63,901 bases of DNA, filler included, from Reclinomonas americana ATCC 50394 (GCA_048213135.1; 23 parts of 23 records of this genome joined end to end with filler, not necessarily neighbours in it); one strand, 5' to 3'; positions 326-58,204 are shown, numbered from the whole stretch's first letter. Translations and numbers: made by a program. The notes: generated by a model from the sequence alone, not told the origin.

Positions 326-2944
326 TCACTGTTTCGGCTCGAGCGGAATCCGCACTTGCATCGGTCGCGGCTCCTCGTGAACTGCCTTCGAATTCGTCAT
401 CTGTGAGGTTGCCACGCTCGACGCTGCCGGACGCTGGTTCTCGTCACTCGCAACCGGGTCAAGTTTCGAGACGCCGATATGGCAGTCGATTCTAGCAGTG
501 ACGGCGGTGGCCGCCACAGCCGGAGCGTCAGCAGGGCGTTCGGTAACCGCTGCGGAAACGCCAGCAGGAGCAGAAAACTCCATGCGGCTCACATGCATGC
601 AGAAACTGTGAGCCAGTGCCTCTTGCGCCGTCAGGCGTCGCTGCGGCTTGTCAATCAGCAAGGCGCTTACAAGCTGAATGCCCTGCAAGAATCGAGCATG
701 CGCGGCGACATTGTCGGCCTCCGCCAGCTCCTCGGCCTCTTGATACAACAACTCGATGAGCGTGGTCGCCAAGTCGATCGGCTCCACGTGAGGCAGAAAA
801 GAATCGATCTGCACCAGCTTCCGCTGCAGCAGCGCCTCGGCAATCACCACGCCTGCACTCCACATATCCGACGCGAAGCTCCACTCGCCCACCTCGTCTT
901 CGTCCGTCGCCGCCAGTGGATCAGGCAACGACTCCGGAGCCTGCGCGCGCACATGTGCGTACATATCAACGCCCCCAAGTATTTAGCACACAACTCGTGG
1001 AACAGACAGGAAGCGGCGAGTCAGAGCGCAACAAGGTAGCCCACGGTGCCTCCACGGCCGATATACGGCAAGTCACCGTTTCCGATGAAGCGTGCGTGGC
1101 CCCAGTCAACCAGCACAGCCACCATTGACTGCGACGAAAAGCAGACATTGTCGCATTTCACGTCGCGGTGAATGTAACCGTGCGAAGCTGCGTGCGCCAG
1201 TGCCGCCAGCAGGTGCCGCGTCAATGCACACGCCTCATCGACAGTGCGAGGCCAGTCATTGCCGTAGTACGGCGTGGTGAGCCCGAACCATTGGTGGCGG
1301 TGAGCAATGTTGGAGGGGATCGGGATCGGCAACGGACCCCAGTTGAGTACGCGAGGAATGGAGAGCACCGTGGGCGACGCAATCCGCAAAAGTACTTGAG
1401 CCTCGTGCAGACACCCGAAAGCGTCGACAACGCTCGGAGCACATTCGCTGCAGTTGACCCACTTGACGACCCACTGCCGGCAGCCATCTGCAAAAAACGT
1501 GACCCAGATCAGCAATGGAAAGAAAACAATGATCAGCAGATCGAGCCATGAACAAGTCACTCACCGTCGTGCAACACCACGCGACGTTTCGCACCAGGCA
1601 CTAGGTTTCTCGACGTGGCTGGCCTCAGTCCGGCAGGTTTTGCTGAAGTGTATTCTGCAACCTTGTTGGCACTGTTCCCGATTTCATGGTGTTTCGGATC
1701 TGAAGAGATGGGTACCCACGTGGGGAGAGATTGCTGTCGCCGACCACCACGAATAGCCTCCGTGAGCAACTCTTGACTCCGACACATTGCCAAGAACATT
1801 CGCGTCATTGCAATCACGAGTGACTCCTGAGTTGCGCCTGCATCGTAAGAATGCTCAGATGAACAAAACACCCATGACTCACAAGCACGAATGCCTGCGC
1901 GCGGACAAACGTACCAAATCTCGGCACCCACGTGCCCACCAGTGAAACGAGAACAGCGAATTTATCGCCATCTCCGCACAGCGCCGGATCAAGGCGAAAC
2001 GCCAGTATCGCAAGAGACTGACCCGTTGCCAGCATTGCGAAGCAGCGCAGTTGACGTCTTGCATCCGTGGCACGCAATGTGTGGGCCATCATCAGCATGT
2101 TGCCGGTCATGTTCCACACAACCTTGACAAAGTCCTTGTGTTCGCTGTCAGCACCGAAGGCGATTGGCAAGCCGACTCTGAGGGCGCTGAACCGGGTGCC
2201 GCGAGGACCGACACGAATCGGCTTCTCCGTATAGGTATTCGGGAACGCCGCCGTGCTAATTCGTGCACAAACGAGTGAGATTCGCGGTACAATAACACGC
2301 GACAACAAAAACGCTCGTGCACCTTACGAAACATTTTGTCAATGACTGCAGGTTGGAAAAGCTCTGGAGCAGGCCCGCAAGCAATTCCTGCCATGCACAG
2401 CACCTCGAACTGCTCGCCCACGGCGGCCAAAATATTGCAGTCGGGTCGCACGGCTCCCATCACGTGCTCGAATCGAGTCGGGAGTCCGTGGTCCGTGAAG
2501 CACTGGAACACGTCGGCCAGATTGTGATGCGACACAGTGCTCTCATGATACGGACAGGTGAGCCTGGCAAGTTCTGCAAGCGACACCCGCGTGTCTCCAC
2601 CCACGGTCGATGAATCAGGAGTCGATGCACCAGGCGCTGACACATCAGAGTCCGACTCTGAAAGCTCCAGTTTGTCGGCCTCGGCCGGCGCACCAGACCC
2701 CGATGCACCAGTATCATCGTCCGCGCTGGGGTCGTCAGCGGAGGTATCCACTTTGACGTCCTCACACGGGCCTTTCGCAAGAGCTGACAGATCAGTGAGG
2801 TGAAGAATGAAAGCGAGAATCACGGACTCAGCAACAACACACACACCTTTCCCAAAATATTGCTCTGCACCCTTGGCATAACGCACGAATTTGCGCACGG
2901 CTCGCCTCATGCACTTGATGAACGAGGTCAATCGTGACAGATTA
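326..2944 (-). CDS. Ser/Thr-type protein kinase with long N-terminal extension (5' partial, spliced)
   Basis: Spliced model gives VVK, HEAQVL, HRDVKCDN, DWG, GTVGYL^APE (intron 941-1032), SDMWSAG and RLTAQEALAH. Further introns at 1488-1564, ~1839-1914, 2256-2332 and ~2785-2846. Confidence 0.85.
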
Positions 2945-3018
2945 CTGCGACAGAGAACCACAGCGAGTTTGTCAGATGAAACTCTCTCCTCAGCGCCACC
3001 ACAAATCGAAAAGAGTGG

Positions 3019-3118
3019 NNNNNNNNNNNNNNNNNNNNNNNNNNNNNNNNNNNNNNNNNNNNTTAATTAATTAANNNNNNNNNNNNNNNNNNNNNNNNNN
3101 NNNNNNNNNNNNNNNNNN
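3019..3118. other. Artificial scaffold spacer (N44-TTAATTAATTAA-N44), first of 22
   Basis: The same 100-nt linker with stops in all six frames recurs, e.g. at 6892, 8080, 9633, 10962, 12310, 31188, 43717 and 62632. Genes such as EFHC and sideroflexin continue across it. Confidence 0.97.
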
Positions 3119-3129
3119 CGTTGTTGCAG

Positions 3130-6100
3130 TCGTCATCTCCCCGAGCAACATCGCCATCAGAACCGGCACCGCTGGCCAGATCGTTGACATCAGTGTCGCT
3201 GGCTCGGCGATTGCCTGGTCGACTGCCTCCACTGCCACTCTCTTCCTCGACCGCGCGTGCACTGGCGTGTCGCCCACCTCCGTAGTTAACTCCAGCACCA
3301 TCTCTGCTGCCTCGCTCACCTTTAATGCGTCTGGTGATGTCAATGGTGGTGAGCGATACCTGTGCATCGACATGGACGGTGCGGGCGCGGCCGCGCGCAA
3401 CGAGTTTGTCGCCACTGTGTTTGTCTGTTGCGTCTCCATCACTCTCATCATGATATGTGCGTCCTCCGACTGACTCCATCCTCTCCTTCCCTTCCCTTCT
3501 CACACGCAGACACCCTTGGTTCGCAAAACAAGTCGCCGCAGCTGGTCAATGGTCTCGCCGACTTTCGGCTGACGGTGGCTGGCCAGCACTTTGCCAATCG
3601 TGAGCTGGGTACTGGCGGCTCGTTCGGCCTGTACTCGGCCGCCGATTGTAGCGGGTCGACGGCACCAAACTCGAGCATCACTCTGCAGTCCAGCGATCCG
3701 GCTGGTCTCTACACTGTGTTCTCGGTGGCCACTGGCGCATTGTTCGCGCAGGGTGCGCTGGGTGTGACGGCCGCCGGCTCGTGCTCGCTGGTGACACCGG
3801 GCGTGTACTATCTGTGTGGCAAGTTGCGTTGATGTGCGGGAGAGAAAGGGAAACACTCAGTAATTTGTAATCATGTGAGGTCCGCCGCCTCCAACAGATG
3901 TGGAGAGAGAGAGAGAGGAGAAGAGTTGAGACGAGAAGAGAAGATGAGGGAGGTTAAACGGAAGAGAAGAGAAAGAACCAGAAAGAAGAGAAGAGACGCT
4001 TGTGTGATTCGAGTCTGGCTCCCCCCTCTGCACTCCTGATGTTCCTGCTGCTGGTCTTCTTTCTCTTCGTGTCTCTTAACTTAATCACGCGCTCACTCCA
4101 CTCTCCTTCTCCTTCTCGCTCCTCTTCTCCCTCTCTTTTTTCTTTATTCCGATTCCTCTCCTGCTTCCTCCTCTCCTTCCTCTCATCCTTTCCCTCTCCC
4201 TCTGCCTCCTTCCTCTATCTTTTTTATTCATTTCGCCCTCCTCTACCATCAGATTCCAGGCCGGTGGCACCACCGTGTACCGCCTGCAACCCCTCCCGCT
4301 CATTGTGACTGCCGCCTCATCGGCACCTGTGGTTTCCTTTGCCAATCCGCCCGTGCTCAAGTACGGCATTGCCAACTCGATTGTGATTGGTTCCACCACT
4401 GAGAACCTGACCGACTGCACGAGCTTCAAGCTGGTGCCGGTCGGCGTCGATTGCTCCACTCTGTCGGACTACTCGACGCTGACGGGCGGTGTTGGCGCGT
4501 CGTTCGTGGGCGCCGGTGCCGACACGTGTGAGTTTGCGACTGGCTGCCGCGTGTTCCGCGCGACCATCACGCCAAATGGATCGAGTGGCGGCGGTGCCTA
4601 CAAGTTGTGTGTGGCGGCCAACAACGGACCGTACGTGTCGGCGGAGGAGTCGTTCACTGCCGGATTCATGACGGCCGGTGGTCTCAGTGCGAGCAGCAGC
4701 GCGGCACCCACATCTTCGCTGTCGACCGCTGATGTCATGGACAGCAGCCCTGCCACCCCCAAGCCGAGCATGTCAACACTGGCAGTGACGGCAACCACGA
4801 TCCAGTTCACTTTCGCACGCGAGTTCTACCGCCGCCCGCGCGTGTTGCTCGGCTTTGCCAGTGTCGGTCGTCAGGGCGCCGCTGGCCCAATTTCCACTCT
4901 TGCCAACGATCCGACTGACGGCACGTTCGCATTCTGTGCGGAGCCGGTGGTGACTGCGGCGCAACTGTCGACTCGATGCCATGGCGTGTCAAGTGACGGC
5001 CAGCTGGGACCCACCATCACACTAAGTTGCGTTCACTACGATGAAGGACAAGGCATTGAAGTGTGTGACTCATCATCTTCCCTCCGCTTTTCTGCATGTG
5101 CAGGCTACCTGGCGTACTACGTGCATCAGACGAATGCTCTATCGATGGATGGTCAGCGCACGCTGACAAGCGCAGCGTGGGCGTCGGATGCGGTAAACAA
5201 GAACAGCTCAACTGTTGTGTGATTTTGTGTACTGTCGTCTCTCTCTCGCGCCTGCTCATCCAGCTTACTCCGTATCATGCACAGTTGGTCAGCGTGTCAT
5301 CCGCGTACCAGTTTGCGTCGGTGCCTGCCGTTCCCGTGGCCGTGATCGGTGTAATGTCGATGCGCCAGTCAGTTGCCGGCAATGATGGACGCGTTCGCGG
5401 CGATAATTTTTCGGTGACAAGCAACTCAGCCTCGCGCTCGAGTTTCGTCATCAAGGGCACGGTGAACGGCGACTCGCGCATTGAAGCGGTATCGGCACGC
5501 TTTGTTGTGGCACCGACACGCCCCGACAACACCAACAACAGCGGATTCGTCATGCTGTCGGGAGGTGCGTTCTCATCCTCCCCCTTGGTCGGAGTGACAT
5601 CAGGTTGTCTCTTTGCCTGACCCCTTGCGTGTGGCGCAGAGACGACGCACACCGGCGCAGCGACGACGCAGACCGCCAGTCTGGCGGCTTTGTCGACACC
5701 GAATGGCCTGCTGCGCGCCACCATCAGTGTGCAGCTGTTCCTGCGTGGGTGGAAGTCGTCGGCAGTCGTTGTGCAGAACCGCATCGATCAGCAGTCGCTA
5801 CAGTTCACCACCAAGCGCCTCGGCAATGAGGACTATGTGACGGCGATCTCGTACAGCGCCAGCGGGGCCGACGCGTCCGACATTGAGTATGTGACATGGG
5901 TGGCGATTGGTCGTGCGGCGCAAGGCGCGCCGATCTCGTGCCCTGTCGGCTACAGCGGCTCCAACTGCGGCGTGTGCACGCTGGCCGACGGTACCACGAC
6001 GTGCTCACTGAACCGACGTGCGGTGCTGAGCTGCGCCTATGGCACCACTCAGATTGTTGCTGAGTGTGCCGAGGGTCGCGAGTGCTTTGAGGCTTACGGC

Positions 6101-6891
6101 TCGGCACAATGTGGATGCTCGGCGAACGGTGCTGTGTGCTTGAATGGCGGCGACTGCTGCTCTGGCAGCTGTGATTCTGGTCTGTGTGTGTCAGCGTGCA
6201 GTCCGACCACCACGTGCTCTGGTCATGGAACGTGCAAGAGCGACGGAACATGCCAGTGCGATACCGACTATTACGGTGCATCGTGCAGTGTGAACTGTGT
6301 GGCGTCCTCGACGTGCTCCGGCAACGGAGCTTGTAAGAGTGACGGCACTTGCCAGTGCAACAACAACTATTACGGTGCATCATGCAATGTGAACTGCGTG
6401 GCGGGCACGACGTGCTCGGGCCACGGAACGTGCAAGACAAACGGCACGTGTCTGTGCACGGGCGACTACACCAATGCCAGCTGCAACTGCAGTCCCACCG
6501 TCACGTGCTCTGGTCACGGTACATGCAAGACTGACGGCACGTGTCTGTGCACGGGCGACTACACCAATGCCAGCTGCAACTGCAGTCCCACTGCGACGTG
6601 CTCTGGTCACGGTACATGCAAGACTGACGGCACGTGTCAGTGCGACACTGACTATTACGGTGCATCGTGCAACGTGAACTGCGTGGCGGCGACCACGTGC
6701 TCCGGCCACGGAACGTGCAAGACTGACGGCACGTGTCTGTGCACGGGTAACTACGCCTATGCCAGCTGCAACTGCAGTCCCACCGTCACGTGCTCTGGTC
6801 ACGGTACATGCAAGACTGACGGCACGTGTCTGTGCACGGGCGACTACACCAACGCCAGCTGCAACTGCAGTCCCACTGCGACGTGCTCTGG
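3130..6891 (+). CDS. Putative extracellular protein, copy 1: Ser/Thr/Gly-rich beta region, three H-type-lectin-like segments, EGF-like repeat array (both ends missing)
   Basis: Introns 3427-3509, 3823-4252, 5026-5103, 5214-5284 and 5565-5639 join one frame. Lectin-like motifs TIQFTFAREFYRRPRVLLGF, QFASVPAVPVAV and EYVTWVAIG (domain call by eye); CSGHGTC repeats at the 3' end. Confidence 0.7.
6197..6891 (+). repeat. Coding tandem EGF-like repeats (93/99-nt units, at least 7.5 units)
   Basis: CSPTxT or CVAxxT + CSGHGTCKxDGT + CQCDTDYYGASCxVN or CLCTGDYTNASCN; the array runs into a gap. Confidence 0.9.
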
Positions 6892-7315
6892 NNNNNNNNN
6901 NNNNNNNNNNNNNNNNNNNNNNNNNNNNNNNNNNNTTAATTAATTAANNNNNNNNNNNNNNNNNNNNNNNNNNNNNNNNNNNNNNNNNNNNACGTGCACA
7001 TGCACACACACACATACGCGCGCGCGGCATGCTCGACCACTTGTGTGTTTGTGATTCTGTGTGGTCTCCTACATGCGTACATTCTCCAACGAACACGTGT
7101 GATACCGCTGCACTGTGCGCGCGCGCAGAAAACTTCAGTATGTCTGCCTCTTTGCGGCACTCTCCTCCTTCCCTTCTCTGTGTCATTCCTTGCCACACTG
7201 TCTGCCTTGATTTTATCTCCGTGTTCGTTGCGCGCGAAAAGTTAACCGTTGGCATGCATCTCTTTTCGCGCGCAAACTCCATTTGTTGTTCTCCCTCTCT
7301 CCTTCGTTGTTGCAG

Positions 7316-9632
7316 TCGTCATCTCCCCGAGCAACATCGCCATCAGAACCGGCACCGCTGGCCAGATCGTTGACATCAGTGTCGCTGGCTCGGCCATTGC
7401 CTGGTCGCCTGCCTCCACTGCCACTCTCTTCCTCGACCGCGCGTGCACTGGCGTGTCGCCCACCGCTGTCCTTAACTCCAGCACCATCTCTGCTGCCTCG
7501 CTCACTTTTAATGCGTCGGGTGATGTCCATGGTGGTGAGCGATACCTGTGCATCGACGTGGACGGTGCGGGCGCGGCCGCGCGCAACGAGTTTGCGGCCA
7601 CTGTGTTTGTCTGTTGCGTCTCCATCACTCTCCCTCGCCTGTGCCTCCTCCGACTGACTCCATCCTCTCCTTCCCTTCCCTTCTCACACGCAGACACCCT
7701 TGGTTCGCAAAACAAGTCGCCGCAGCTGGTCAATGGTCTCGCCGACTATCGCCTGACGGTGGCTGGTCAGCACTTTGCCAATCGTGAGCTGGGTACTGGC
7801 GGCTCGTTCGGCCTGTACTCGGCCGCCGATTGCAGCGGGTCGACGGCACCAAACTCGAGCATCACTCTGCAATCCAGCGATCCGGCTGGTCTCTACACTG
7901 TGTTCTCGGTGGCCACTGGTGCATCGTTCGCGCAGGGTGCGCTGGGTGTGGCGGCCGCCGGCTCGTGCTCGCTGGTGACACCGGGCGTGTACTATCTGTG
8001 TGGCAAGTTGCGTTGATGGGCGGGAGAGAAAGGGAAACACTCAGTAATTTGTAATCATGTGAGGTCCGCCGCCTCCAAGNNNNNNNNNNNNNNNNNNNNN
8101 NNNNNNNNNNNNNNNNNNNNNNNTTAATTAATTAANNNNNNNNNNNNNNNNNNNNNNNNNNNNNNNNNNNNNNNNNNNNGAGAAGAGAGACGGAAAGAAG
8201 AGAAGAGACGCTTGTGTGATTCTAGTCTCGCTCCCCCCTCTGCACTCCTGATGTTCCTGCTACTGTTGTTCTTTCTCTCTCCCTCTCGGACACTCCATTT
8301 CGTGTCTCTTAACTTAATCACACGCTCACTCCACTCTCCTTCTCCCTCTCGCCCCACTTCTCCCTCTCTTTTCTTTTTCCGATTCCTCCTCTCCTTCCTC
8401 TCCTCCTTTCCCTCTCCGTCCCTATCCCTCCCTATCCCTCCCTCTCCCTCCCTCTCCCTCCCTCTCCCTCCCTCTCCCTCTCTCATTCATTTCGCCATTC
8501 TCTACCATCAGATTCCAGGCCGGTGGCACCACCGTGTACCGCCTGCAACCCCTCCCGCTCATTGTGACTGCCGCCTCATCGACGCCGGTGATCTCCTTTG
8601 CCAATCCGCCCGTGCTCAAGTACGGCATCGCCAACTCGATTGTGATTGGCTCCACCTCTGAGAACCTCACCGACTGCACGAGCTTCAAGCTGGTGCCGGT
8701 CGGCGTCGATTGCTCCACTCTGTCGGACTACTCGACGCTGACGGGCAGCGTAGGCGCGTCGTTCGTGGGCGCCGGTGCCGACACGTGTGAGTTTGCGACT
8801 GGCTGCCGCGTGTTCCGCGCGACCATCACGCCAAATGGATCGAGTGGCGGCGGTGCCTACAAGTTGTGTGTGGCGGCCAACAACGGACCGTACATGTCGT
8901 CGGGGGAGTCATTCACTGCCGGATTCATGACGGCCGGTGGTCTGAGTGCGAGCAGCAGCGCGGCGCCCACATCCTCGCTGTCGACCGCTGACGACATGGA
9001 CAGCAGCCATGCCACCCCGAAGCCGAACATGTCAACACTGGCAGTGACGGCAACCACGATCCAGTTCACGTTTGCTCGCGAGTTCTACCGCCGTCCGCGC
9101 GTGTTGCTCGGCTTTGCCAGTGTCGGTCGTCAGGGCGCCGCTGGCCCAATTTCCACTCTTGCCAACGAGCCGACTGACGGCACGTTCGCATTCTGTGCGG
9201 AGCCGGTGGTGACTGCGGCGCAACTGTCGACTCGATGCCATGGCGTGTCGACTGACGGCCAGCCGGGACCCACTATCACACTAAGTTGCGTTCACTACGA
9301 TGAAGGACAAGGCATTGAAGTGTGTGACTCATCATCTTCCCTCCGCTTTTCTGCATGTGCAGGCTACCTGGCGTACTATGTGCATCAGACGAATACTCTG
9401 TCGATGGACGGTCAGCGCACGCTGACAAGCAAGGCGTGGGCGTCGGATGCGGTAAACAAGAACAGCTCAACTGTTGCGTGATTTTTGTGTACTGTCGTCT
9501 CTCTCGTGCCTGCTCATCCAGCTTACTCCGTATCATGCACAGTTGGTAAGCGTGTCATCCGCGTACCAGTTTGCGTCGGTGCCTGCCGTTCCCGTGGCCG
9601 TTATCGGTGTCATGTCGATGCGCCAGTCGGTT
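7316..9632 (+). CDS. Lectin-like/EGF protein, copy 2 (partial)
   Basis: Near-identical to copy 1 in exons, with the same intron positions (donors 7613, 8007, 9285, 9473). Confidence 0.7.
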
Positions 9633-10043
9633 NNNNNNNNNNNNNNNNNNNNNNNNNNNNNNNNNNNNNNNNNNNNTTAATTAATTAANNNNNNNNNNNN
9701 NNNNNNNNNNNNNNNNNNNNNNNNNNNNNNNNACATGCACATGCACAGACACACGGCATGCTCGACCACTTGTGTGTTTGTGATTCTGTGTGGTCTCCTA
9801 CATGCGTACATTCTCCAACGAACACGTGTGATACCGCTGCACTGTGCGCGCGCGCAGAAAACTTCAGTATGTCTGCCTCTTTGCGGCACTCTCCTCCTTC
9901 CCTTCTCTGTGTCATTCCTTGCCACACTGTCTGCCTTGATTTTATCTCCGTGTTCGTTGCGCGCGAAAGTCAACCGTTGGCATGCATCTCTTTTCGCGCG
10001 CAAACTCCATTTGTTGTTCTCCCTCTCTCCTTCGTTGTTGCAG

Positions 10044-12309
<2,266 letters not shown>

Positions 12310-12409
12310 NNNNNNNNNNNNNNNNNNNNNNNNNNNNNNNNNNNNNNNNNNNNTTAATTAATTAANNNNNNNNNNNNNNNNNNNNNNNNNNNNNNNNNNN
12401 NNNNNNNNN

Positions 12410-13419
12410 CTGTGGCGATTGGTGGTCAGATTTACACTTCCACTGACTCTGGGGTGACATGGACGCCTCGTGACTCCACTCGTGACTGGATATCAGTAAC
12501 CTCCAACAGTGACGGCACCAAGTTGGTGGCTGGGGTTCGCAGCGGGCAGATGTTTACCTCCACTGACTCTGGCGTGACATGGACTGGGGTGACTTCCGAA
12601 GGGCTACATGGGAAGAATACCTGGCAGTCTGTCGCCTCCAGCAGTGACGGCACGAAGCTTGTTGCAGCTGTGCTAGGGGGTCAGTTGTACACCTCCACTG
12701 ACTCGGGCGTGACATGGACTGCTCGTGAAGCCACGCGCAGTTGGCAATCTGTGGCCTCTAGCAACGATGGCACCAAGCTGGTGGCAGTTGAGCAAGGTGG
12801 CCAGATCTACACCTCCACTGACTCTGGAGTGACGTGGACTGCTCGTGATTCCGCTCGCTTCTGGACCGCAGTGGCCTCCAGCAGTGACGGCACCAATTTG
12901 GTGGCTGTAGCTTTCTTTGGGCAGATCTACAACTCCACTGACTCTGGCGTGACATGGACGGCTCGTGAATCCAGTCGCCGGTGGCTTGGAGTGGCCTCCA
13001 GCAGCGATGGCACCAAGCTGGTGGCTGTGGTGAATAGTCGCCAGATTTACACCTCCACTGACTCTGGCGTGACGTGGACTGCTCGTGATTCCAATCGCGG
13101 CTGGAGTGGAGTGGCCTCCAGCAGTGAAGGCACCAAGCTGGTGGCAATTGAGCAAGGTGGCCAGATCTACACCTCCACTGACTCGGGTGTGACATGGACT
13201 GCTCGTGATTCCGCTCGTGACTGGACTGCAGTGGCCTCCAGCAGTGACGGCACGAAGCTGGCGGCTGTGGGGAACAACGATCAGCTGTACATCTCCACTG
13301 ACTCTGGTGTGACGTGGACACCTCGCGATTCCAATCGCATCTGGCTGTCAGTGGCGTTAACCAGTGACGGCACCCAGATTGTGGCCGTTGCGGATCAGGT
13401 GTACACTTTCCCGTGCTGA
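12410..13419 (+). CDS. BNR/Asp-box repeat beta-propeller, intronless, 5' partial
   Basis: Eight YxSTDSGVTW-type Asp boxes in ~40-aa (120-nt) units alternating with WxxVASSSDGTKLVA; stop TGA ends at 13419. Confidence 0.85.
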
Positions 13420-13571
13420 TCGCTGTCCAGCTGTTTCGTGTTCACAGCGGTGATGTGTTCGTGAGGGAAACTGCCATCACGCAATCTCGTACGACTTCGT
13501 CCTTTTCCTTGTCCTCCTGTCCATCGCATCCCTCCCTCGTCGATGATCATCAGCTCGACGTCAAGCCCTTT

Positions 13572-13633
<62 letters not shown>

Positions 13634-14689: not shown

Positions 14690-14713
14690 ATTTGTTGTTG
14701 TTGTTGTTGTTGC

Positions 14714-14752
<39 letters not shown>

Positions 14753-14904: not shown

Positions 14905-14947
<43 letters not shown>

Positions 14948-15099: not shown

Positions 15100-15191
<92 letters not shown>

Positions 15192-15193
15192 AT

Positions 15194-15260: not shown

Positions 15261-16114
15261 GAGAGAAACGGTGCGAAAGAAGGGAGCGGGAGATGAATGG
15301 GCGACAGAAGGCGAGACGTCGTCCAAGAGGCTTGAAGGAGGCTGCCTCATAAGTAACAGTTGTTTGTGATTAACGGAGGGGGTAGAACGTTGTGGTGTGA
15401 GAGAGACGGGTTACTGCAGATGAGGGATGTGATTCATTTGGGAGAGAGAAAGAGCGAAAGTAGGACGGGATGGAGAGGAATAAGTCGACCAAGCAAGAAT
15501 GTCAGTGTTTGTGAGGCTGTTGAAGAGAGCGGNNNNNNNNNNNNNNNNNNNNNNNNNNNNNNNNNNNNNNNNNNNNTTAATTAATTAANNNNNNNNNNNN
15601 NNNNNNNNNNNNNNNNNNNNNNNNNNNNNNNNAAGATAAGGGGAGGAGAAGGGGAGGAGAAGCGGAGGAGAAGGGGAGGAGAAGCGGAGGCAAAGGAGAA
15701 GAAGAAGAGAAGAAGGTGGAGATTGAGAAGGAGGAGAACGGGGAGAAAGAGAACAGGGAGGAGAGGGGGGAGGAGGAGAAGAAGAAGAAGAGAGAGGAGA
15801 GACAAAGAGAGAGAAGGGCAAGAACGCAGAGAGGCGACAGAGAGGGCAAGAAGGGAGAGGTGCACAGACGCGCGAGAGACAACGAGAGAAGAGCCAGTGT
15901 GAGAGAGTGGATGAGAAGGAGTGAGGGAAGATGCGAGATGCATGCAAAGATGCAAGTCACTCACTCACACACACACACTGTCTGTGCAGTTACACGCAAC
16001 GAGACTCGCTCACGTCACTCTTCTTCTTGCTCTCCATCACACACACAAACACAAACAATCAAACGAAACAACCAATCAACAAACACACTCTTTCTTTACT
16101 TATCATATCACAAC

Positions 16115-46618: not shown

Positions 46619-47707
46619 TCACATGTGCAACTCAAAGTCCACGCTGCACCGATAAAGCACAACAGCAGCATCCTCGACAATGAAGCAACGCAGCGCCATC
46701 TCCGGAAGACACCGTGAATCGGGTTCGTCATCCACCGGCTGCAGCTCCCGCACCGCCAGCATCGCCAAACGCGCAGCTTGCAGCTCTTGCCATGCGAGAC
46801 CGCGAGGAGTGGACCACACTCGCACTGCCTTGTCAAGACCACCACTCACAATGTGCTGATTATCGGCTGTGGCAGCAACAGAATACACCCGCTCTGTGTG
46901 TCCCTCCAACCGCTGCACTTCTTCTCCTGTTATTGCCGACCACACACGCACGGTCTCGTCGTCACTTCCACTCACAATGCACTGGCCGTTGTGAGTGACG
47001 GCAACGCAGAACACGTCACTGGTGTGTCCTTGAAACTGTCGCACCTGTTCTCCATTCGCCGCCAGCGACGACAGTCGCACTCTCTTGTCGCAACCCCCAC
47101 TCACAATGTGCTGACTGTCGGGAGTAACGGCCACGGACCACACGAAACCAGTGTGCCCCTGAAATCTGCACACCTCCTCTCCACTCGTGAGAGACCACAC
47201 TCGCACCGTGTTGTCCAAACCCCCGCTCACAGCTTGCTGACCGTCGGGTGTGATGGCAACCGAGTACACCCAGCCAGTGTGTCCCTCCAGTCGTCGCACC
47301 TCTTCTCCGCTCTCCAGAGACCACACACGCACTGTCGCATCATCGCTGCCACTCGCAACGCGCTGCCCGTCAGGAGCGCTGGCGACACAACGCACCACAC
47401 CAGTGTGCCCCACCAATTGTCGCAGTTCATCACCACTCGCCAACGACCACACTCGCACCTTCTTGTCACCGCCACCACTCACTATGCGTCGACCATCGGG
47501 GGTGATGGCAACAGACCATACGCCTCCAGTGTGAGCCTTCAGCAGTCGTACTTGCTCTCCGCTCGCCAGCGACCACACTCGCACTGTGTTGTCTACGCTT
47601 CCGCTGACAACGTACTCATCGTCGGGAGTGATGGCAAGGGACCGCACCCATGCAGCGTGTCCAAGGAGGCACTTGGAGGGGAGGAAGGGAGCAGGAGAGC
47701 GTGACAT
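46619..47707 (-). CDS. Intronless seven-blade WD40 protein with highly similar repeats and short helical tail
   Basis: Seven GHTxxVxxVAxTPDxxxxVSGxxDxxVRVWS units of ~42 aa; first plausible ATG at 47707. Confidence 0.88.
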   Translation of the reverse strand: MSRSPAPFLPSKCLLGHAAWVRSLAITPDDEYVVSGSVDNTVRVWSLASGEQVRLLKAHTGGVWSVAITPDGRRIVSGGGDKKVRVWSLASGDELRQLVGHTGVVRCVASAPDGQRVASGSDDATVRVWSLESGEEVRRLEGHTGWVYSVAITPDGQQAVSGGLDNTVRVWSLTSGEEVCRFQGHTGFVWSVAVTPDSQHIVSGGCDKRVRLSSLAANGEQVRQFQGHTSDVFCVAVTHNGQCIVSGSDDETVRVWSAITGEEVQRLEGHTERVYSVAATADNQHIVSGGLDKAVRVWSTPRGLAWQELQAARLAMLAVRELQPVDDEPDSRCLPEMALRCFIVEDAAVVLYRCSVDFELHM

Positions 47708-47780
47708 GATATGAAGTGATGGAATGGGACAAGGTCCGACCACTTTCTTCATCACTGTTGTCATTGTAGTGCCTTCTGCT

Positions 47781-48657
47781 TTATCTGGGCAGCTGCTGAC
47801 AGGGAGCCACGGGACACGCAAAGTCATAATTCCTGCACGTGTCGGGCCAACCCTGCGGCCCCTTCACCGCCAAGCATCGCATGCAGTACTCAACAAGGCA
47901 CGTCGGCTCCTGGCACTTCATGTGCTTGCAGCCGTCATTGTGATCTGCCACCAGGAAGAAGTGAGAGAGACGGCAATGCGGCACGAACAATCTTCACCAG
48001 TTACCTTGAATGCGATGGCATCGCGGACACGCACGCAGGCGTGGCACGGGATCGTCGGTGGCCTTGTCGAAGGGCCACATGAGCTGCACGACGTGGTGAG
48101 AAAGCGCGAATGCTTACGTGCTGCCGTGTCACACACACTCACCACCCACTCGCACGCGATGAGCAGGTCTGCAGCTGACATGCAACCAGGGTTGCCGCAG
48201 GGACCACGCGATCCCGAACCACTCGCCCATCGTCCACCACACCGCAAACAGAACCTGGTGCCGCACGGACAGTCGGCATCCTGGAACGACGTGTCCTCGG
48301 GCATACACATCGTCCCGCACTGTGCAATCACTGCTGTCAGCGACAGTCGGCGGAGACTGAGCACAAGCAGACGTGACACACCGTTGGACAAGGTTTGGTG
48401 TTGCTGTTCAGGAATGCTATGTTGAGCATGTCTTCGTAGGCGTCCAGATCGCGCCGCAAATGTGGTTTCCCCGCACAAGCATGTCGAATGACCGAGTCAG
48501 GGATGACTGCAATAACGAAGCACAACAGTCAATCGTAGAAGAAGAGTGAGGTGCACTTGGACATAAGAACGTACCAATTCGACAAGCCGTGACGCAGCAA
48601 CGCATCGCATCACCGGCTCCCGTGGCAACGTGCGATTGCAGCATGTCGGTCAAGCTG

Positions 48658-48744
<87 letters not shown>

Positions 48745-49399: not shown

Positions 49400-49667
49400 G
49401 TGCGCGTTCGAAGAGGAGTGACGGACAGGAAGAGGGACAGGACTCGACTCTTTTTTTCTTGACCATCCCTTGGTTTGGCCAGTCCGGGGCTGCGAGAACA
49501 ACGCACGCCAACAGCGCACTCCCAATCGTCAGCACTGGGGGCATTTCTCCGACATAGAAGCATTCACGAAGTTGCTTGCACGAAACCCCCCACCCCCCTT
49601 GTCAACTACTCAACCTCGTCAGCCTCCGTGCCTTGGATGCACCGTCGCCAACACCAGACTCCCCGCT

Positions 49668-50540
49668 TCATTTCGGCAACTGCTGACAGGGAGCCACGGG
49701 GCACGCAAAATCATAATTCCTGCACGAGGCTGGCCAACCCTGCGACCCCTTCACCGCCAAGCATCGCATGCAGTACTCGACGAGGCACGTCGGCTCCTGA
49801 CACTTCATGTGCTTGCAGCCGTCATTGTGATCTGCCACCAGGAAGAAGTGAGAGAGAGGCGCAATGCGGCACGAACAACCTTCACCAGTACCTTGAATGC
49901 GATGGCATCGCGGACACGCACGCAGTCGTGGCACGGGATCGTCGGTGACCTTGTCGAAGGGCCACATGAGCTGCACGACGTGGTGAGAAAGCGCGAATGC
50001 TTACGTGCTGCCGTGTCACACACACTCACCACCCACTCGCACGCGATGAGCAGGTCTGCAGCTGACATGCAACCAGGGTTGCCGCAGGGACCACGCGATC
50101 CCGAACCACTCGCCCATCGTCCACCACACCGCAAACAGAACCTGGTGCCGCACGGACAGTCGGCATCCTGGAACGACGTGTCCTCGGGCATACACATCGT
50201 CCCGCACTGTGCAATCACTGCTGTCAGCGACAGTCGGCGGAGACTGAGCACAAGCAGACGTGACACACCGTTGGACAAGGTTTGGTGTTGCTGTTTAAGA
50301 ATGCCATGTTGAGCATGTCTTCGTAGGCGTCCAGATCGCGCCGCAGATGTGGTTTCCCCGCGCAAGCATGTCGAATGACCGAGTCGGGGATGACTGCAAT
50401 AATGAAGCACAACAGTCAATCGCAGAAGAAGAGTGAGGTGCACTTGTGCACTGGAACGTACCAATTCGACAAGCCGTGACGCAGCAACGCATCGCATCGC
50501 CAGCTCCCGTGGCAACGTGCGATTGCAGCATGTCGGTCAA

Positions 50541-50628
<88 letters not shown>

Positions 50629-51436: not shown

Positions 51437-51686
51437 GTGCGCGTTCAAAGAGTGGCGGACAGGAGGAGGGACAGGACTGCACTTTCTTGACTTTTTCTTG
51501 ACCATCCCTTGGTTTGGCCATACAAGGTTGCGAGAACGGCGCTCTCTTGCAGCGTGACTCCCAATTGTCGGCACTGGGGCATTTCTCCGACATAGAAGCA
51601 ATCACGAAGTTGCTTGCATGAACCCCTCCTGAAACCCCCCACCTCCGTGCCTTTGATGCACCGTCACCATCACCACACTCTCCATT

Positions 51687-53925
51687 TCATTTCGGCAACT
51701 GCTGACAGGGAGCCACGGGGCACGCAAAATCATAATTCCTGCACGAGGCTGGCCAACCCTGCGGCCCCTTCACCGCCAAGCATCGCATGCAGTACTCGAC
51801 GAGGCACGTCGGCTCCTGANNNNNNNNNNNNNNNNNNNNNNNNNNNNNNNNNNNNNNNNNNNNTTAATTAATTAANNNNNNNNNNNNNNNNNNNNNNNNN
51901 NNNNNNNNNNNNNNNNNNNGACACACTCTCTCTCTCTCTCTCTCTCCTCCTCTCTTCTTCTCTCTCTCTCTCTCCTCCTCTCTCTCTCTCTCTCTCTCTC
52001 TCTGCACGCAATACCTTGAATGCGGTGGCATCGCGGACACGCACGCAATCGTGGAACCGGATCGTCGGTGGGCTTGTCGAACGGCCACATTCTCTGCACA
52101 ACACAATCACACAGCCGACTGGTTGAGCAGAGCTGTCCACGGTCTCTGCGCTTCCACAGTCATCGCACGCACCACCCACTCGCACGAGCCGAGCACATCA
52201 TTGGATGACATGCAGTCGCGATTGCCACACGGACCACGCGACCCAGCACCACTTATCCACCTTCCACCGCACCGCAAGCAAAACCGGGTTCCGCACGGAC
52301 ACTCGGCATCTTGAAACGCAGCATCCTCGGGCATGCACATGGAGCCGCACTGTGTCATCAAAGAAGTAAGCTTTTAACAGAGAAGATAATTTGTGCGTGC
52401 AGTCACACACCGTCGGGCACGGCTTGGTGTTGCTGCTCAAGAACGCCATGTTGAGAATGTCTTCGTAGGCGTCGAGATCACGCCGCAGATGCGGCTTCCC
52501 CGCGCAAGCGTGTCGAATGACCGAGTCGGGGATTTCTGCACCATAAAACTTCAGCTAACGCGGAACAATGAGTGATACTCGTCAGCGCAGGTGTATACCG
52601 ATTCGACAAGCTGTGCCGCAGCAGCGCATCGCATCGCCAGCTCCCGTGGCAATGTGCGAATGCAGCATGTCGGCCACACTATTACACACACAAATGGTGA
52701 GTAGCTGAGGCGCGGCAGTGATGCAGGAAAGCAACGCACCACTCCTGACACAATCCATGCCTGCACGGCAACTGGTAGCACACTTCCAGATTGCGACCGG
52801 TGCAGTTGGCGCATTGCAGGCTGCGATTGACGACAACACCCGACGGGAGCGATGCCGCTTTCTGCGAGCTTGCTGGAGTTTGAGCAGGTGTGGCAGCTGG
52901 CGTTTGAGCAGGTGTTGGTGCCGCAGGCCGCTGCTGTTGTTGTGGCGGCGAGTGTTGCGCGAAGAGTTCCTCCAACCCTAATGTGCTTGGCTGGCGAGCG
53001 GCTGCGGCGGGCGCTGCTCGCACCGGGGCCACCGGCGCGCGCGCTGGTGNNNNNNNNNNNNNNNNNNNNNNNNNNNNNNNNNNNNNNNNNNNNTTAATTA
53101 ATTAANNNNNNNNNNNNNNNNNNNNNNNNNNNNNNNNNNNNNNNNNNNNAAACTCTGCCAGCGCTTCCATGTCGACACGTCTGGCCTCGGCCGACGGCGA
53201 GCTTACTGCGATGACGGTGAGCGGCACACACATGCGCGCGCGCGGTGACTGACAACCGTGCAGCGACTTACCCGGACGCGGTGGCACAGCGGGCGCCCTC
53301 GCCGGAGCAGCAGCCGCAGCAGCAGCAGGCGAGTTCTCCTCAAACAGACTCCGCAGGCCGAGGTCGTTCGAGGAGCCCACTGACGGTCGCGGCGGCACCG
53401 GAGGCGCCGACTGCAACTGCGGTGGTCGAGCAGGTGGCGGTGGCGGTGGCGGTGATCGGCGGGTCGCCGAAGGCGCAGGATGCCGCACACTGTCAAATAG
53501 GCCGCTGAACTCGGCCAGCGCATCCACGTCCGCAGCGACTCGTGTGGCTGCAAATCCAGCAAGCAATGAGCGCTCGTGTGAGTGAGTGAGAAACGATCGC
53601 GAGCCTCACCTTGTCGATCTCGTGGTGGCACTGGTGGCGGCGACGATGCCGGGTGTGCGCTGGCAGGTCTCATCAGCGAGGCTGTACCCGCAAAAATGAG
53701 TGTTCGAAACGCAGAGGCGGACGAGTGATGTGCAAACGGACCTGCGAGCTGCTGTGCAGAGGCCTCCACAGAGGCCGACTGTCGCGCAGAGACCGGTCGT
53801 GATCCGGAGTGCTTCTTTGATGCTGTGTGGTGAGTGTCCGTGTTGAGCACAGAAATCGCAAAGTGAAGGCAGAGCGAAGGCGGAGAGGTGGACGCACACT
53901 TGTCGGAGGAGCTGGAGGTGCCCAT
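51687..53925 (-). CDS. RBR E3 ligase 6: MGTSSSS start, Pro-rich N-terminus with PxVPPR motifs
   Basis: Spliced 5' exons are phase-consistent; RING1/IBR near-identical to RBR3; spans two gaps. Confidence 0.8.
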
Positions 53926-54034
53926 TGTGTGTGTTAGTGCGACGGAGTGTGTACGCGCAGTGGACAGCAGCGGAGTGTGAGTGATCGAGAGTGAAGGCAC
54001 AGGACAGCAATCGATCAACCGAGTGCGGCGAGGC

Positions 54035-57000
54035 ATGCACCTCGGTGCAGTGACTTGCGTGGCATGGGTTGGCAAGGAGGACGATGCTCTGCTGTTGAGC
54101 GGTGCGTGTGTGTGTGTGTTTGCCCGGGCATCCCACCTATACTTGCTTGTCTCATCGATGAGTTTGCATTGCAGCCTGTGGACCATTGCTTCGACTGTGG
54201 AGTGTCACCAGTGGCCTGTTGCACGCTGAGCTGTGTCTTCCGTTCCGCGCTCACTGCATTGCTGGTGCTGGACTGGGAACAGTGATCGTGGGAGGAGAGC
54301 ATTCGGTGGCTGCTGTGCGCATGGAGAATGGACTGCGTGTGGTGGCGCTGCGCGAGGAGTTGCCACACTGGGTGCACACTGTCCATTACTGTTGTGAGGA
54401 GCAGGTGGCGGTGATTGGATTTGCTCGTGATGCGGTTGGCTGCTGGGATGTGACGGGTGAAGGCGAGCTTCGCGCGGTGCGATTGCGACCGTCGTGTTTG
54501 TTGTTGCGTGCTATGCATCCACCGTGGTGATGATACGCACAGCTCGGCTCATCGTTCTTTGATCAGGTATTCGATGGCCATTTGTGGTGATTCGTGGGCG
54601 GATGTGTGGGTGGCAGCAGGCACCACCTGCTCGAATGTGTTGGTATACCGACCGGGGCGGTCGTCGGAACCACACCAGAGGTTAGCAGGTCACGAGGTTT
54701 GTGTCGTCTCCACTCTCGCTTCTCTTGCAAATGTGTGGCCTCACCGACTGTCAGGGTGCCGTGTTTCACGTCAGCTGGAGCGACAATGGATGTGTGTTGT
54801 GCACGTGCTCTGAGGGACGCACCATTCGAGTGTGGCGGAGAGAGTGCGTGGATCCGCAGAGTGCGTTGAGCAAGGCAGTCGGCTGTCTCTCTGATCGTTG
54901 AGTGACGCACAGAGCAGTCGACCGTGATCTTGTCGAGTGCGTGGCAGTGCGAGGACACGAAAGTCGAGTGTGGCAGTCGTTTTTGTTGCCGAGTGGAGTG
55001 CTGGTCTCCGTGTCGGAGGTCTGTGTGAATTGTTGGCACTCGTTGCATAGACGCGACAAAATGACCAGTCGAGCAGGATGCGACTGTTCGGCTGTGGAGC
55101 GTCGCTGACGGGGGTGCTGCGAGGCACGTGTTTCGTGGTGCGTCTGTTCTGCAACATGAGCGCATAGGAGTGCCTCTGTGTGTGTGTGTGTGTGTGTGTG
55201 TGTTTCGTGGTGCGACTATTATGCAATGTGCATGCCTGTGAGTACCTCTGTGTGTGTTTGGCTGACTGCATGCATCCACTTAGGCCACAAGGGTTCGCTG
55301 CGATGTGTGACTCCAGTGGAAAATGGAGGGTGTGTGGTGCGTCTCCTCATAGCAAAAATTGGTGAGTGCATACTTGGCCATTCTGCTCATCGTGTCGTGC
55401 AGGCTTCTGGAGGTGATGATGGTGTGATTCGTGTGTGGAATGTGCGCGACGTGTGGAGGGAACCAGGTTTGTCTCCTGCGTCGTCTGCTCTCGTCTGGCG
55501 CGCGTTTGCCAATGAATGAGCACTTCGCAGTGGAAATTCTGCGTGTCGATCTTGCGGACATTGGAGGTCGTGTGCGTCACGTAGCACTGTGTGCAGGTGC
55601 GGAGACTGCTGTCGTCTCGCTCACGTCGGGGTACGTGTGCAACCAATTTTGATCTCCATGCCAGCTCTCCACTGACACACACACACGTGCTGCAGTCGAG
55701 TGGTGCGTGTGGGCCGCAGTGGTGCGGTCCAATTGCTGCCACTGTTCACTGCCACTGGCCGCGATGGCGTGGTTGCACTGGCTGTGCAGGAGACGCAAGG
55801 AATGCCTATGGCCGTCGGCTACTCCAGCGGGGCAGTGGCTCTCGGGGACGTTGATGGGGTACGTCGAAAACACTCAGAAGGAGCTGCCATTTCCTCTCAC
55901 TGCCACACGCAGGATGACGCCATTACAATCGATGCGTTTTCGGAGCGCACTTCTGTGTTTAGCATGTGGTGGACTTCGCCAGCACATCTTGCAGTCGCCA
56001 GTACAGAAGGTCATGTCGCACTGTTGACCGTCACGGCAGCAGAGGTGCTGTTTGCAAATCACTCCTCCTGAATGCTTGCCGCCTTTGCTTCTCACCTACC
56101 ACCAATAGGAGTGTGTCGCCGCCTCCTTTTGCACGCCACGGAGGCAGCGAGTGTTCTCTGCCTGCGAGCACGCGCGCGAAACCTGGCTATTTGTGGGTGA
56201 CGTGCGCGGAAATGTGCATGCCTACGATTGGGCACTCGGGCGGCATCTCTGCTCCATCCCGCGGGTGCACGATGGAGTTTCGTGGACCATTTATCGCCAC
56301 TCTTCTCCACTTTCGTGAACTCATTGTGATCCCAGCACCCGATTCACTCTCTGTTGTGGCACACCGAGCGCAGCGAGTTGGTGACTGGCGGCGGCGATGC
56401 CTTTCTGTGTCGTGTGTCGATTGCGGAAGATGGCGCCACCGGCAACGTAGAGGAGCGCACTCACTTTTCGGCGCATGTCAGCTCCATCACGCGCCTTGTG
56501 ACGACAAGCAGCGGGCATGTTGTGGGCATTGGAATCAAGGGTACAGTACCGCATTCGACGTCTCAGCGCTACACTTGCACTCACTCAGTGTCTTCTCACA
56601 CGTAGGGGATCAAGTGCGAGTGTTTGACGGAGGCGACGGGCAAGCAGTGCGTGCTGTCGGTCCTCCAACGCAAATTCACAGTCGCTCACCCTCGCCTCCA
56701 GTTATTCTCCGTGCCACTTGATCGGCGGTGTCACTCGATTCGCGTCGTGGACGGAGGTCTATCGTTTGCTGCCGCCGATGCATACGGAACAGTGCTGCGT
56801 GTATTGGCAACGCAGCCGCCAGCTCCCGTGTCATTCGTACACGAATTGGGTGACCGAGTGCACCACTTGCACGTGCATGTTGTGCTGGTGATGAGCGCGG
56901 ACGTTGGCACGCTGGTGGTGACATGTGGCGAGGACAGCGCCGTCATGTCGTATGCTCATCGGGGCGGTGAGGAACATCCGGTGCAGCACATGTCGGCCGT

Positions 57001-58204
57001 GTGGACGCATGATGGGGCGTGGCGGTGCTGTGCCAAAGGTTCTGTTCAAGAGTCTCAACTTCCACTCCCTGCTGAAGTGTCACTGAACCATGCAACAGTC
57101 GCGGAGGACGATGTCTTGGTGTTGCTCGCCACTGGCGGCCATTGCGAGCTGGTACAGCTTTGGAAGCTCAGCCGACACACCGGCGAGCTGACTGCGCATG
57201 GGCGACTGCTGGCAGCCGTATGGCCTGACTGTGAGATGGCGGAATGTGACGACGATGATGACGGTGACGATCGTGCCGCGCAATATCGCATGTACGCCAT
57301 GTGCGTGCTCGAGAACGATGCCGACCAGTCGATTCTCGCCACGGGAGCATCCGACGGACGTGTCAAGCTGTTTGCGTTGCCGCACGAGCCTCATCAATGC
57401 CCACGGCCACAACCGCTGCCAATGGTGGCCTACAGTGAGAGTCAGTGTGCCGGTGTGGTGCTGTGCTTGTGCCAGCTGAGTGTGGGACATGACGAACGCG
57501 CGCGAAAGCTGCTGCTGTCTGGCTGTACGGACGGTACTCTGGCAATCTACGACGTGACTCGTGTGCGCGCTGACGGAGAGGCTCGTCGATTGGAGCCATT
57601 GTTGGTTCGTCATTCATATATACGAGAGAAAATGTTGGCAGCCAGCTCATTGTTGTCGTGTCGGTCAGCACGAACGGATACACCAATCCGGTGTGAACTG
57701 TGTGAGTGCCGCGGCAGTCGGTGCATCGACATGGATTCGTGTGGTCACCGGCGGCGACGACCAGTCGGTGTGTGTGACCGACGTGGCGGTAATCGACCGT
57801 GACGAAGGCACGTCCCGCATTTGATGATAGAGAAAGTGCGGTGCTCATTGATCCTCGCCGCAGAGCCGCTCTCGGCGCGCATCGTCGAGCAGTGTCGCCA
57901 GGAGGAGGCGCACTGGGCGGCTGTGCGAGGCGTCGCTCTGCTGAGTGCCGATCGCGTAATCAGCGTCGGCGGTGATCGAGTTGCGTCGTGTTGTTCTCCT
58001 CTCCGTATACAGTTGACCTCACACTCTGCGCAGCGGCTGTGCACGTGGCGCTTGGCAGAATCGTCCGTGGAAGCCGTGTGCGAGCGGGTGGTGCACATTA
58101 GCAGTGTGCGCACGATGACGGCACGCGTGGTAGAGTCGGTCGCTCAGGTGTGGATCGCCGGCCACGGACTGGAGTTGTGTCGCATGAAGGTGCCAGCGGA
58201 GTGA
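54035..58204 (+). CDS. WDR6: WDR6/Trm734-like WD40 protein (tRNA 2'-O-methylation cofactor)
   Basis: AVTCV, CLL^YS, VAAGT, LAGHE^GAVFHV..TCSEGRTIRVW, GHESRVW, HQSGVN..VTGGDDQS, AHWAAVRG..GGDR^RLCTW and terminal AGHGLE match the WDR6 layout as I recall it; about 15 short introns. Confidence 0.82.

Follow-up and report, generated by a model that had tools for sequence, protein, structure and literature searches.

The window analysed here, a stretch of 63,901 bases from Reclinomonas americana ATCC 50394 (GCA_048213135.1), carries eukaryotic genes with short pyrimidine-rich introns, and the 5' splice sites (donors) of these introns were found in two spellings that go together with whether or not the last exon base is G. 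We hold with moderate confidence that these are ordinary GT-AG introns whose 5' splice site is spelled two ways, combining an exon-side/intron-side compensation with an intron motif displaced by one base. The ordinary class (O) would be defined by an exon-final G, mostly within (A/G)AG/GT (a slash marks the cut), followed by a loose GTRNGT. The shifted class (S) would be defined by /GTTGCG(T/C), near-invariant over seven intron bases and without an exon-side consensus. All intron calls were based on DNA, open frames and homology; at that level, the introns, their two classes, the association with the exon-final base, the one-base displacement and the common branch, acceptor, length and composition features are regarded as demonstrated.

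The exon-final base and the donor class

After the collapse of gene copies, the curated set consisted of 49 introns: 35 of class O, 13 of class S with GTTG(C/T)G(C/T), and one beginning with GTTTCGT. The class S donors were GTTGCGT in ten cases, GTTGCGC in two and GTTGTGT in one, both copies of the latter being GTTGCGT. The class O donors were more diverse, with GTGAGT (8), GTGCGT (7), GTTTGT (3), GTACGT (3) and many single forms. A G at position -1 was determined for 31 of the 35 class O donors, in agreement with a preliminary description of this DNA, according to which most ordinary donors are of the G/GT type. In class S, G was present at 1 of 13 sites (T 6, A 5, C 1, G 1), which resulted in a Fisher p value of 3.0e-7 for the de-duplicated set. 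When only the five genes resolved end to end were considered, the corresponding values were 22/23 and 0/8 (p=1.1e-6). Among the 17 exon ends lacking G, 12 were followed by the heptamer, one by GTTTCGT and four by a perfect GTGAGT or GTGCGT. These four class O donors were CAT/GTGAGT at 24634, AAT/GTGAGT at 60575, TCA/GTGAGT at 19308 (-) and GCA/GTGCGT at 56647 (+), and all of them had a perfect intron side; the last two had already been pointed out as strong ordinary donors after non-G exons and were confirmed. The consensus of the exon side and that of the intron side were anti-correlated here, in the manner of two donor classes.

The preliminary description had listed 18 shifted donors between positions 1026 and 57986, 17 of them after a base other than G. 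In that range, 19 GTTG(C/T)G(C/T) donors were counted at intron starts with copies included, and all 19 followed A or T, so the pattern stood; the independence of the sites did not. Contigs 2-6 (3119-12309) carry one gene in triplicate, with 91.6-97.4% identity among the copies, and due to this triplication 12 of the 19 donors are four introns present three times, so that the range contains 11 independent class S donors and the whole window 13. Two class S donors were located beyond the range, at 60345 (after G) and at 63790 (after C). The exception GTG/GTTGCGT at 60345 that had been listed with the 18 is therefore real, but it lies outside 1026-57986. The association is real, its count was inflated by threefold pseudo-replication, and it holds after the collapse. 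The triplicated gene encodes a long protein with many EGF-like cysteine repeats (CSGHGTC...) at the C-terminus, and four of its five introns belong to class S. As the contigs of the window are joined by linkers, gene adjacency across a linker is not genomic, and the seemingly tandem copies may represent alleles or paralogues, or copies that the assembly left uncollapsed.

In the coding background, G preceded 25.5% of 749 GTs. Class S is without the usual enrichment of G at -1 rather than avoiding G. The -1 base of class S was A or T in 11 of 13 cases compared with 47% in the coding background (p=0.0065), and it resembled position -2 of class O, where A or T was found at 23 of 35 sites. In an exon-blind control, the best in-phase GT was selected by positions +3 to +7 only, leaving out one gene at a time, from a mean of 3.6 stop-free candidates per intron; the selected site was the curated donor in 35 of 41 introns.

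Position of the cut and common intron features

One intron position is shared by three RBR/IBR paralogues, the exons of which end in ...CE(W/E)V with GTG/. The intron begins with GTGAGT on contig 18 (donor 44489), with GTGCGT on contig 21 (donor 52172) and with GTTGCGT on contig 22 (donor 60345). Since the exon end is GTG/ with all three intron starts, the extra T leaves the cut in place.

All 49 curated donors begin with GT, and all 41 introns with a defined acceptor end in AG. The branch-like motif CT(A/C/G)A(C/T) was detected within the last 60 nucleotides (nt) of 36 of these 41 introns (10/13 in class S, 25/27 in class O, and the GTTTCGT intron), and the narrower CT(C/G)A(C/T) was similarly represented in both classes. 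The median length was 70 nt for class S and 66-71 nt for class O, with pyrimidine contents of 0.63 and 0.59-0.61, respectively. Introns of the two classes stand side by side within the same genes. By their 5' and 3' ends, the branch-like motif and the continuity of the protein across the junctions, the class S introns are best described as GT-AG introns of the U2-type spliceosomal kind.

The acceptors of the curated introns favour (C/T)GCAG/, and 28 of 41 end in GCAG. A helix between the 5' heptamer and an (A/G)CGCAG 3' end was considered and rejected, GCAG being no commoner in class S (8/13) than in class O (20/27).

Motif counts, predicted U1 pairing and proposed mechanism

On both strands of the window, GTTGCGT occurs at 29 sites compared with 11.55 expected (2.5-fold), and none of 100 shuffled sequences reached 29. 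GGTGAGT was enriched as well (28 vs 11.2 expected). The count of GGTGCGT, 16 vs 11.64 expected, was not significant, as 13 of 100 shuffles reached it. No enrichment was found in the window for GTTGAGT (10 vs 11.0 expected) or GTTAAGT (0 vs 1.8 expected).

The pairing of the donors with the standard U1 5' end, AUACUUACCUG (PMC4856993, Table 2), was predicted by duplex folding with any register or bulge allowed. The 13 class S sites resulted in a mean of -1.1 kcal/mol, ranging from -2.6 to +0.7. For class O, the mean was -7.4 kcal/mol with 33 donors (range -13.0 to -4.4) and -7.2 with 35, and for non-donor exonic GTs it was -2.8. A model site of the GCA/GTGCGT type was also weak with the standard U1, at -1.1 kcal/mol. 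With hypothetical U1 molecules, in which positions 5 and 6 were changed or the 5' end was made complementary to the heptamer, the values for class S became -4.9, -7.0 and -11.0 kcal/mol; these gains show only the kind of reader that would fit.

In the favoured reading, an exon lacking G at -1 would be recognised wholly by the intron heptamer, which may be the GCGT intron motif of this organism, displaced downstream by a single base through an additional T (GT-T-GCGT compared with GT-GCGT). The reading RNA would pair with a one-base shift or bulge of the register, without a change of the cut at GT, and U1, later U6, would be the likely reader in this non-canonical register. As the standard U1 5' end fails to account for the GCG, the organism's small nuclear RNA (snRNA) or a helper factor probably differs from the standard one. 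The preliminary description had superimposed both classes as a single motif, G-(G/T)-TGCGT; the one-base displacement in this proposal was retained, but among ordinary donors the motif fits only the seven GTGCGT sites of 35, with GTGAGT being at least as common (8/35). It had also been proposed that G at +1 takes over the pairing role of G at -1. The human precedent (PMC4856993) and the A or T at -1 agree with this, whereas the class S sites barely pair with the standard U1. The earlier notion that exon ends are freed from constraint equals the known compensation between exon and intron side (PMC11732430).

Several points weigh against the favoured reading. The standard U1 is predicted to give the class S sites no stable helix in any register, their mean being even weaker than that of the exonic GTs. 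The ordinary donors were picked with the consensus known, and with the exon-blind selection only 18 of 28 class O donors followed G, compared with 1 of 13 in class S (p=8e-4). The depletion of G in class S against the coding background was not significant (1/13, p=0.12). Three class S introns (donors at 5026, 26151 and 57980) are readable in frame. In the stretches of the WD-repeat gene outside the curated count, there are possible weak donors after non-G exons, namely T/GTGTGAA at about 55021 and either T/GTCTCTC at 54880 or C/GTTGAGT at 54897, which would soften the rule. Finally, the sample comprises only about 62 kilobases (kb), 49 introns and nine genes, some of which are paralogous.

A dedicated reader of class S is possible but unlikely. 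It would be a second U1-like snRNA, another RNA or a protein with a face complementary to GUUGCG(U/C), for example a U1-type RNA with a re-written 5' end, and class S would be a separate class at the 5' end only, resembling U12-type introns there while the branch and the acceptor remain U2-type. The seven invariant intron bases without an exon consensus, the pairing with the standard U1 that is worse than at a random exonic GT, and the enrichment of GTTGCGT but not of GTTGAGT or GTTAAGT are consistent with such a reader, and the classes would be separated by a hypothetical 5' end built to complement the heptamer (-11.0 kcal/mol for S, -4.7 for O). Undetected snRNA variants matching the GTGCGTG donors of Ostreococcus were considered by Irimia and Roy (PMC2483917). 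In contrast, the Rfam search of the window returned no RNA family and no snRNA, the branch, acceptor and length are alike in both classes, and the occurrence of GTGAGT, GTGCGT and GTTGCGT at one position of the RBR/IBR paralogues suggests an easy passage between the classes, which would be simpler with one flexible reader.

It is rather unlikely that the standard U1 itself is strictly displaced by one base on the class S sites, with G at +1 pairing in place of G at -1. Precedents for this exist in human cells (PMC4856993), class S superimposes on G/GTGCGT, and its A- and T-rich -1 base behaves like position -2 of class O. Against it, helix energies are predicted to be close to zero, a uridine of U1 would stand opposite the C at +5, GTGCGT makes up only 7 of the 35 ordinary donors, and shifted motifs that would pair better are not used. 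Due to the weak pairing of class S together with the absent enrichment of GTTAAGT and GTTGAGT, the invariance of the GCG is not accounted for by a plain register shift on the standard U1.

Evidence for the individual introns

An annotation artefact, in which some or most of the GTTGCGT sites are not donors and the -1 base is simply the background composition, is very unlikely. Of the 29 GTTGCGT sites, 9 or more are indeed not donors (Table 1), and the -1 spectrum of class S is not significantly poorer in G than the background. On the other side stand the 2.5-fold enrichment of the motif, the frame or stops that demand 10 of the 13 introns, and the copies of introns which differ by 1-3 nt in length while the exons keep their frame. 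In addition, three of the 13 class S junctions were confirmed by homology. In the EFHC gene, the exon before 31838 aligns to RIB72 (6u42_6T) through residue 377 and the exon from 32301 aligns from residue 378. In the sideroflexin gene, the last full codon ahead of the donor corresponds to position 266 of the Pfam SFXN profile, and the codon that follows the acceptor to position 267; both junctions are thus supported to the residue. The kinase junction was confirmed by motif and by the Pkinase profile, which stands at 163 before and at 174 after the phase 0 join of ...GTVGYL to APE..., the latter being presumably the kinase motif of that name. For the remaining class S junctions the evidence is weaker and consists of open frames.

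The ten introns that cannot be read through have a length that is not a multiple of three or contain an in-frame stop. The copies of intron 1 of the EGF-repeat gene are 83, 81 and 80 nt long with flanking exons that keep the frame, and those of intron 4 are 71, 70 and 70 nt long with an in-frame stop. For intron 3, the lengths are 78, 78 and 77 nt, and the 78-nt form is readable in frame while the 77-nt copy is not. In two of the three gene copies, the contig ends within intron 2, after the donors at 8007 and 10734. In the hybrid histidine kinase gene, the intron 26086..26151 is supported by motif, branch and acceptor only, and its join corresponds to what we take to be the N-box layout; the small exons of this gene had no Pfam or PDB match. 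For the intron at 54503..54566, an alternative acceptor 24 nt earlier is possible with the same donor. The intron at 57980..58033 is the weakest of the class.

It is highly improbable that the class consists of copies of a mobile intron (an introner-like element) that begins with GTTGCGT: the EGF-repeat gene does have four class S introns among its five, but local alignment of intron interiors gave a mean of 8.0 (maximum 17) between class S introns, 7.2 (maximum 15) for shuffled interiors and 8.2 between class S and class O. The alternative that the introns begin one base downstream with a non-canonical G/TT start, which had been raised in the preliminary description, would keep the frame if both ends shift and give an identical messenger RNA in 4 of 13 cases (downstream exon beginning with G), but its probability is practically negligible, as the 3' ends would become GC (4), GG (4), GA (3) or GT (2) without a common dinucleotide, whereas GT-AG fits all 13.

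Comparison with known systems

In human 5' splice sites, the shifted (+1) and bulge (+2/+3) registers of U1 are proven and rare according to Tan et al. 2016 (PMC4856993), in which Roca and Krainer 2009 are cited and a table contains 68 predicted bulge +2/+3 sites. The class S sites resemble these human sites in having an extra base between GT and the paired motif, a cut at GT and a dispensable exon-final G. In contrast to the rare human sites, which pair well with the standard U1 (GUUAAGU-like), class S makes up 13 of 49 introns with the spelling GUUGCG(U/C), which is predicted not to pair.

The compensation between exon and intron side has long been known, and two classes, AG//GUNNN and NN//GURAG, have been linked with loop 1 of U5 and the ACAGA box of U6 (PMC11732430); the same trade-off has been described as left-handed and right-handed sites (2025, PMC11842720). 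As there, a G at -1 allows a loose intron side in our set and its absence needs a strong one. The differences are that the intron-side class is GU-U-GCG(U/C) and not GURAG (12 of 17 non-G exon ends), that it is displaced by one base, and that the split is nearly all-or-none.

Outside chromosome 2 of Ostreococcus lucimarinus, atypical GTGCGTG donors have been reported, together with a preference for CGCAG acceptors and without an snRNA to explain them (Irimia and Roy 2008, PMC2483917). A GCGT-type motif beside typical GTRNGT donors and the leaning of acceptors towards (C/T)GCAG are similar here. The Ostreococcus donors differ in having no extra T, and the two intron sets of that genome differ in the branch motif (ACTGAC) and in genomic region. 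Two grammars of the Ostreococcus type were rejected for the present window, where GTGCGT was found at 7 of 35 class O donors, ACTGAC in 3 of 41 and CGCAG in 14 of 41 introns, and both donor classes have their 3' features in common and stand within the same genes.

Introns of the U12 type have the 5' motif RTATCCTT and the branch site TCCTTAAC; the 5' motif is long and invariant and needs no exon-final G. Class S is similar in both of these respects. An assignment to the U12 type was nevertheless rejected, because the 5' motif differs, none of the 13 class S introns has a TCCTTAAC-like branch site, and branch and acceptor are as in class O. A full-text search of a limited paper collection, by strings and not by meanings, found no published description of a GTTGCG donor class, the matches being only primers and guide sequences.

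Significance of the second spelling

In nearly all eukaryotes most exons end in G, and this preference, with what takes over where G is missing, is seen as a balance between contacts on the exon side (U1, U5) and on the intron side (U1, U6). The pattern described here is a sharper and differently spelled form of this known trade-off, with about a quarter of the curated introns in class S. Its intron-side solution differs from the universal GURAG and consists of an invariant heptamer with a one-base displacement, which the standard U1 is predicted not to see. If transcripts confirm the pattern genome-wide, it would offer a natural system in which the snRNAs responsible for the register and for the cut could be told apart. 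It would also provide a gene-finder rule for the lineage, as scoring of six intron bases would miss all these donors, and, following Ostreococcus, it would be the second example in which GCGT-type donors lack an explanation by snRNA. Should a dedicated reader be true, 5' splice sites would be recognised in a third way, next to those of the standard U1 and of U11. This would operate within introns that are in other respects ordinary and of the U2 type, and the last base of the exon would be released from selection.

Annotation of the window and additional features

The G+C content of the window is 50-58%. The sequence contains 44 runs of 44 N, forming 22 linkers of the structure N44-TTAATTAATTAA-N44 at positions 3019-62731, which join 23 contigs of about 1-9 kb. 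A Pfam search with the 150 longest stop-to-stop frames identified an EFHC/RIB72 flagellar protein, a WD40 protein, a protein kinase, a histidine-kinase ATPase domain and sideroflexin. Because self-trained codon models drifted onto low-complexity repeats, a parser misplaced donors and a context-only score did not settle them, the introns were curated by eye on the basis of frames, conserved motifs and paralogues, and were checked by translation of the junctions and by the exon-blind control. One donor of the WD-repeat gene, at 55362, was rejected after it failed the frame check, and G/GTGCGT at 55337 was taken instead.

The curated introns were distributed as follows: kinase 3, EGF-repeat gene 5, sideroflexin 2 (of perhaps more), hybrid histidine kinase 12, EFHC 6, RBR/IBR gene of contig 18 5, its diverged paralogue on contig 22 3, WD-repeat gene of contig 22 12 resolved, and contig 23 1. 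Intron copies, the WD-repeat stretches at approximately 54880-55140 and 56700-57980, the candidates on contig 14 and the site at 16000 were excluded from the count, and contigs 8, 11, 13, 14, 16, 17, 19, 20 and most of 23 lay outside the annotation. The coordinates are collected in Table 1.

Table 1. Introns, donors, non-donor motif sites and related blocks in the window, with strand in brackets and the cut marked by a slash.
Feature	Position (strand)	Exon end/intron start	Gene or location	Remarks
Class S intron	941..1032 (-)	CTT/GTTGCGC...GCGCGCAG/	Protein kinase gene	92 nt; in-frame stop
Class S intron	3427..3509 (+)	TCT/GTTGCGT	EGF-repeat gene, intron 1	Copies 7613-7693, 10341-10420
Class S intron	3823..4252 (+)	CAA/GTTGCGT	EGF-repeat gene, intron 2	430 nt; in-frame stop; required to join open frames
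Class S intron	5026..5103 (+)	TAA/GTTGCGT	EGF-repeat gene, intron 3	Copies 9285-9362, 11963-12039
Class S intron	5214..5284 (+)	ACT/GTTGTGT	EGF-repeat gene, intron 4	Copies 9473-9542, 12150-12219 begin GTTGCGT
Class S donor triplets	3427/7613/10341; 3823/8007/10734; 5026/9285/11963; 5214/9473/12150		EGF-repeat gene	
Class S intron	17695..17754 (-)	TGA/GTTGCGC	Sideroflexin gene	
Class S intron	26304..26362 (-)	GCT/GTTGCGT	Hybrid histidine kinase	59 nt; in-frame stop; joins ...HIAR to LKGVEF...
Class S intron	26086..26151 (-)	GCT/GTTGCGT	Hybrid histidine kinase	66 nt; joins ...NAIKFTRQG to SIVLRL...
Class S intron	31838..32300 (+)	AGA/GTTGCGT	EFHC/RIB72 gene	
Class S intron	54503..54566 (+)	GTT/GTTGCGT	WD-repeat gene	In-frame stops follow; join gives a WD-like blade
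Class S intron	57980..58033 (+)	CGA/GTTGCGT	WD-repeat gene	54 nt; CTCAC branch-like motif; GCGCAG acceptor
Class S intron	60276..60345 (-)	GTG/GTTGCGT	RBR/IBR paralogue, contig 22	Sole class S intron after G
Probable class S intron	63724..63790 (-)	CAC/GTTGCGT		Flanking frames open; GCGTGCAG acceptor; no homology support
Variant intron	56277..56335 (+)	GGA/GTTTCGT	WD-repeat gene	Phase 0 join ...RVHDG to HPIHSLLW...
Candidate, uncounted	30901-30987 (+)	TTT/GTTACGT	Contig 14	Within 30901..31079
Candidate, uncounted	31073 (+)	GAC/GTTGCGT	Contig 14	Contig ends within intron (..31079)
GTTGCGT at contig ends	31073; 16000			Outside curated count
Class O donors	45053, 44911, 44723, 44489, 44348 (-)		RBR/IBR gene, 44348..45053	All five after G; paralogue copy on contig 21
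Class O donors	24181..27159 (-)		Histidine kinase	Ten donors, nine after G, one CAT/GTGAGT (24634)
Class O donors	31412..33876 (+)		EFHC gene	Five donors, all after G
Non-donor GTTGCGT	22238			Antisense to long coding frame
Non-donor GTTGCGT	22834			In-frame coding
Non-donor GTTGCGT	19586, 39541			Without intron features
Non-donor GTTGCGT	16649, 17100, 17246 (-)		Tandem repeats 16600-17250, apparently without donors	Downstream of or inside sideroflexin gene region
Non-donor GTTGCGT	18800, 18908 (-)		Tandem repeats 18780-18920, apparently without donors	Downstream of or inside sideroflexin gene region
RBR/IBR family blocks	34230-34600, 42030-42880, 44110-45100, 47780-48000, 49670-50000, 52170-52810, 59950-60700 (-)			

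The RBR/IBR-type (RING-between-RING-like) genes form a multi-copy family on the minus strand of at least six contigs, with blocks that are 76-96% identical. The hybrid histidine kinase, which includes a receiver domain, occupies 24015-27223 (-) and has at least 12 introns, one of them 603 nt long with internal repeats. The homologue search for the largest EFHC frame gave no match; a protein atlas search resulted in generic WD40 clusters only; and a metagenome scan for EFHC relatives found three distant loci with 38-49% identity. At 30848-31079 (+), what may be exons 1 and 2 of a gene (MAERARIPVELPLLPGN...) bear both candidate donors of contig 14; we presume a likeness of this start to the EFHC N-terminus, for which a PDB search returned no significant match.

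Long intron-free frames are present on contigs 7 and 10. The frame at 12412-13416 (+) is long and intron-free with approximately nine BNR/Asp-box-like repeats (...YTSTDSGVTWT...), that at 20462-22200 (-) is long, intron-free and TPR-rich, and a P-loop NTPase-like frame (GVPGVGKT) was located at 38657-39780 (+) and an ankyrin-repeat frame at 43345-43714 (-). An intron-free WD40 gene at 46619-47707 (-) consists of seven nearly alike repeats, and its codon usage is unlike that of the other genes (leave-one-out score of -13 in the right frame). Across the window, long runs of (GA)n, (GT)n and (CAA)n are common.

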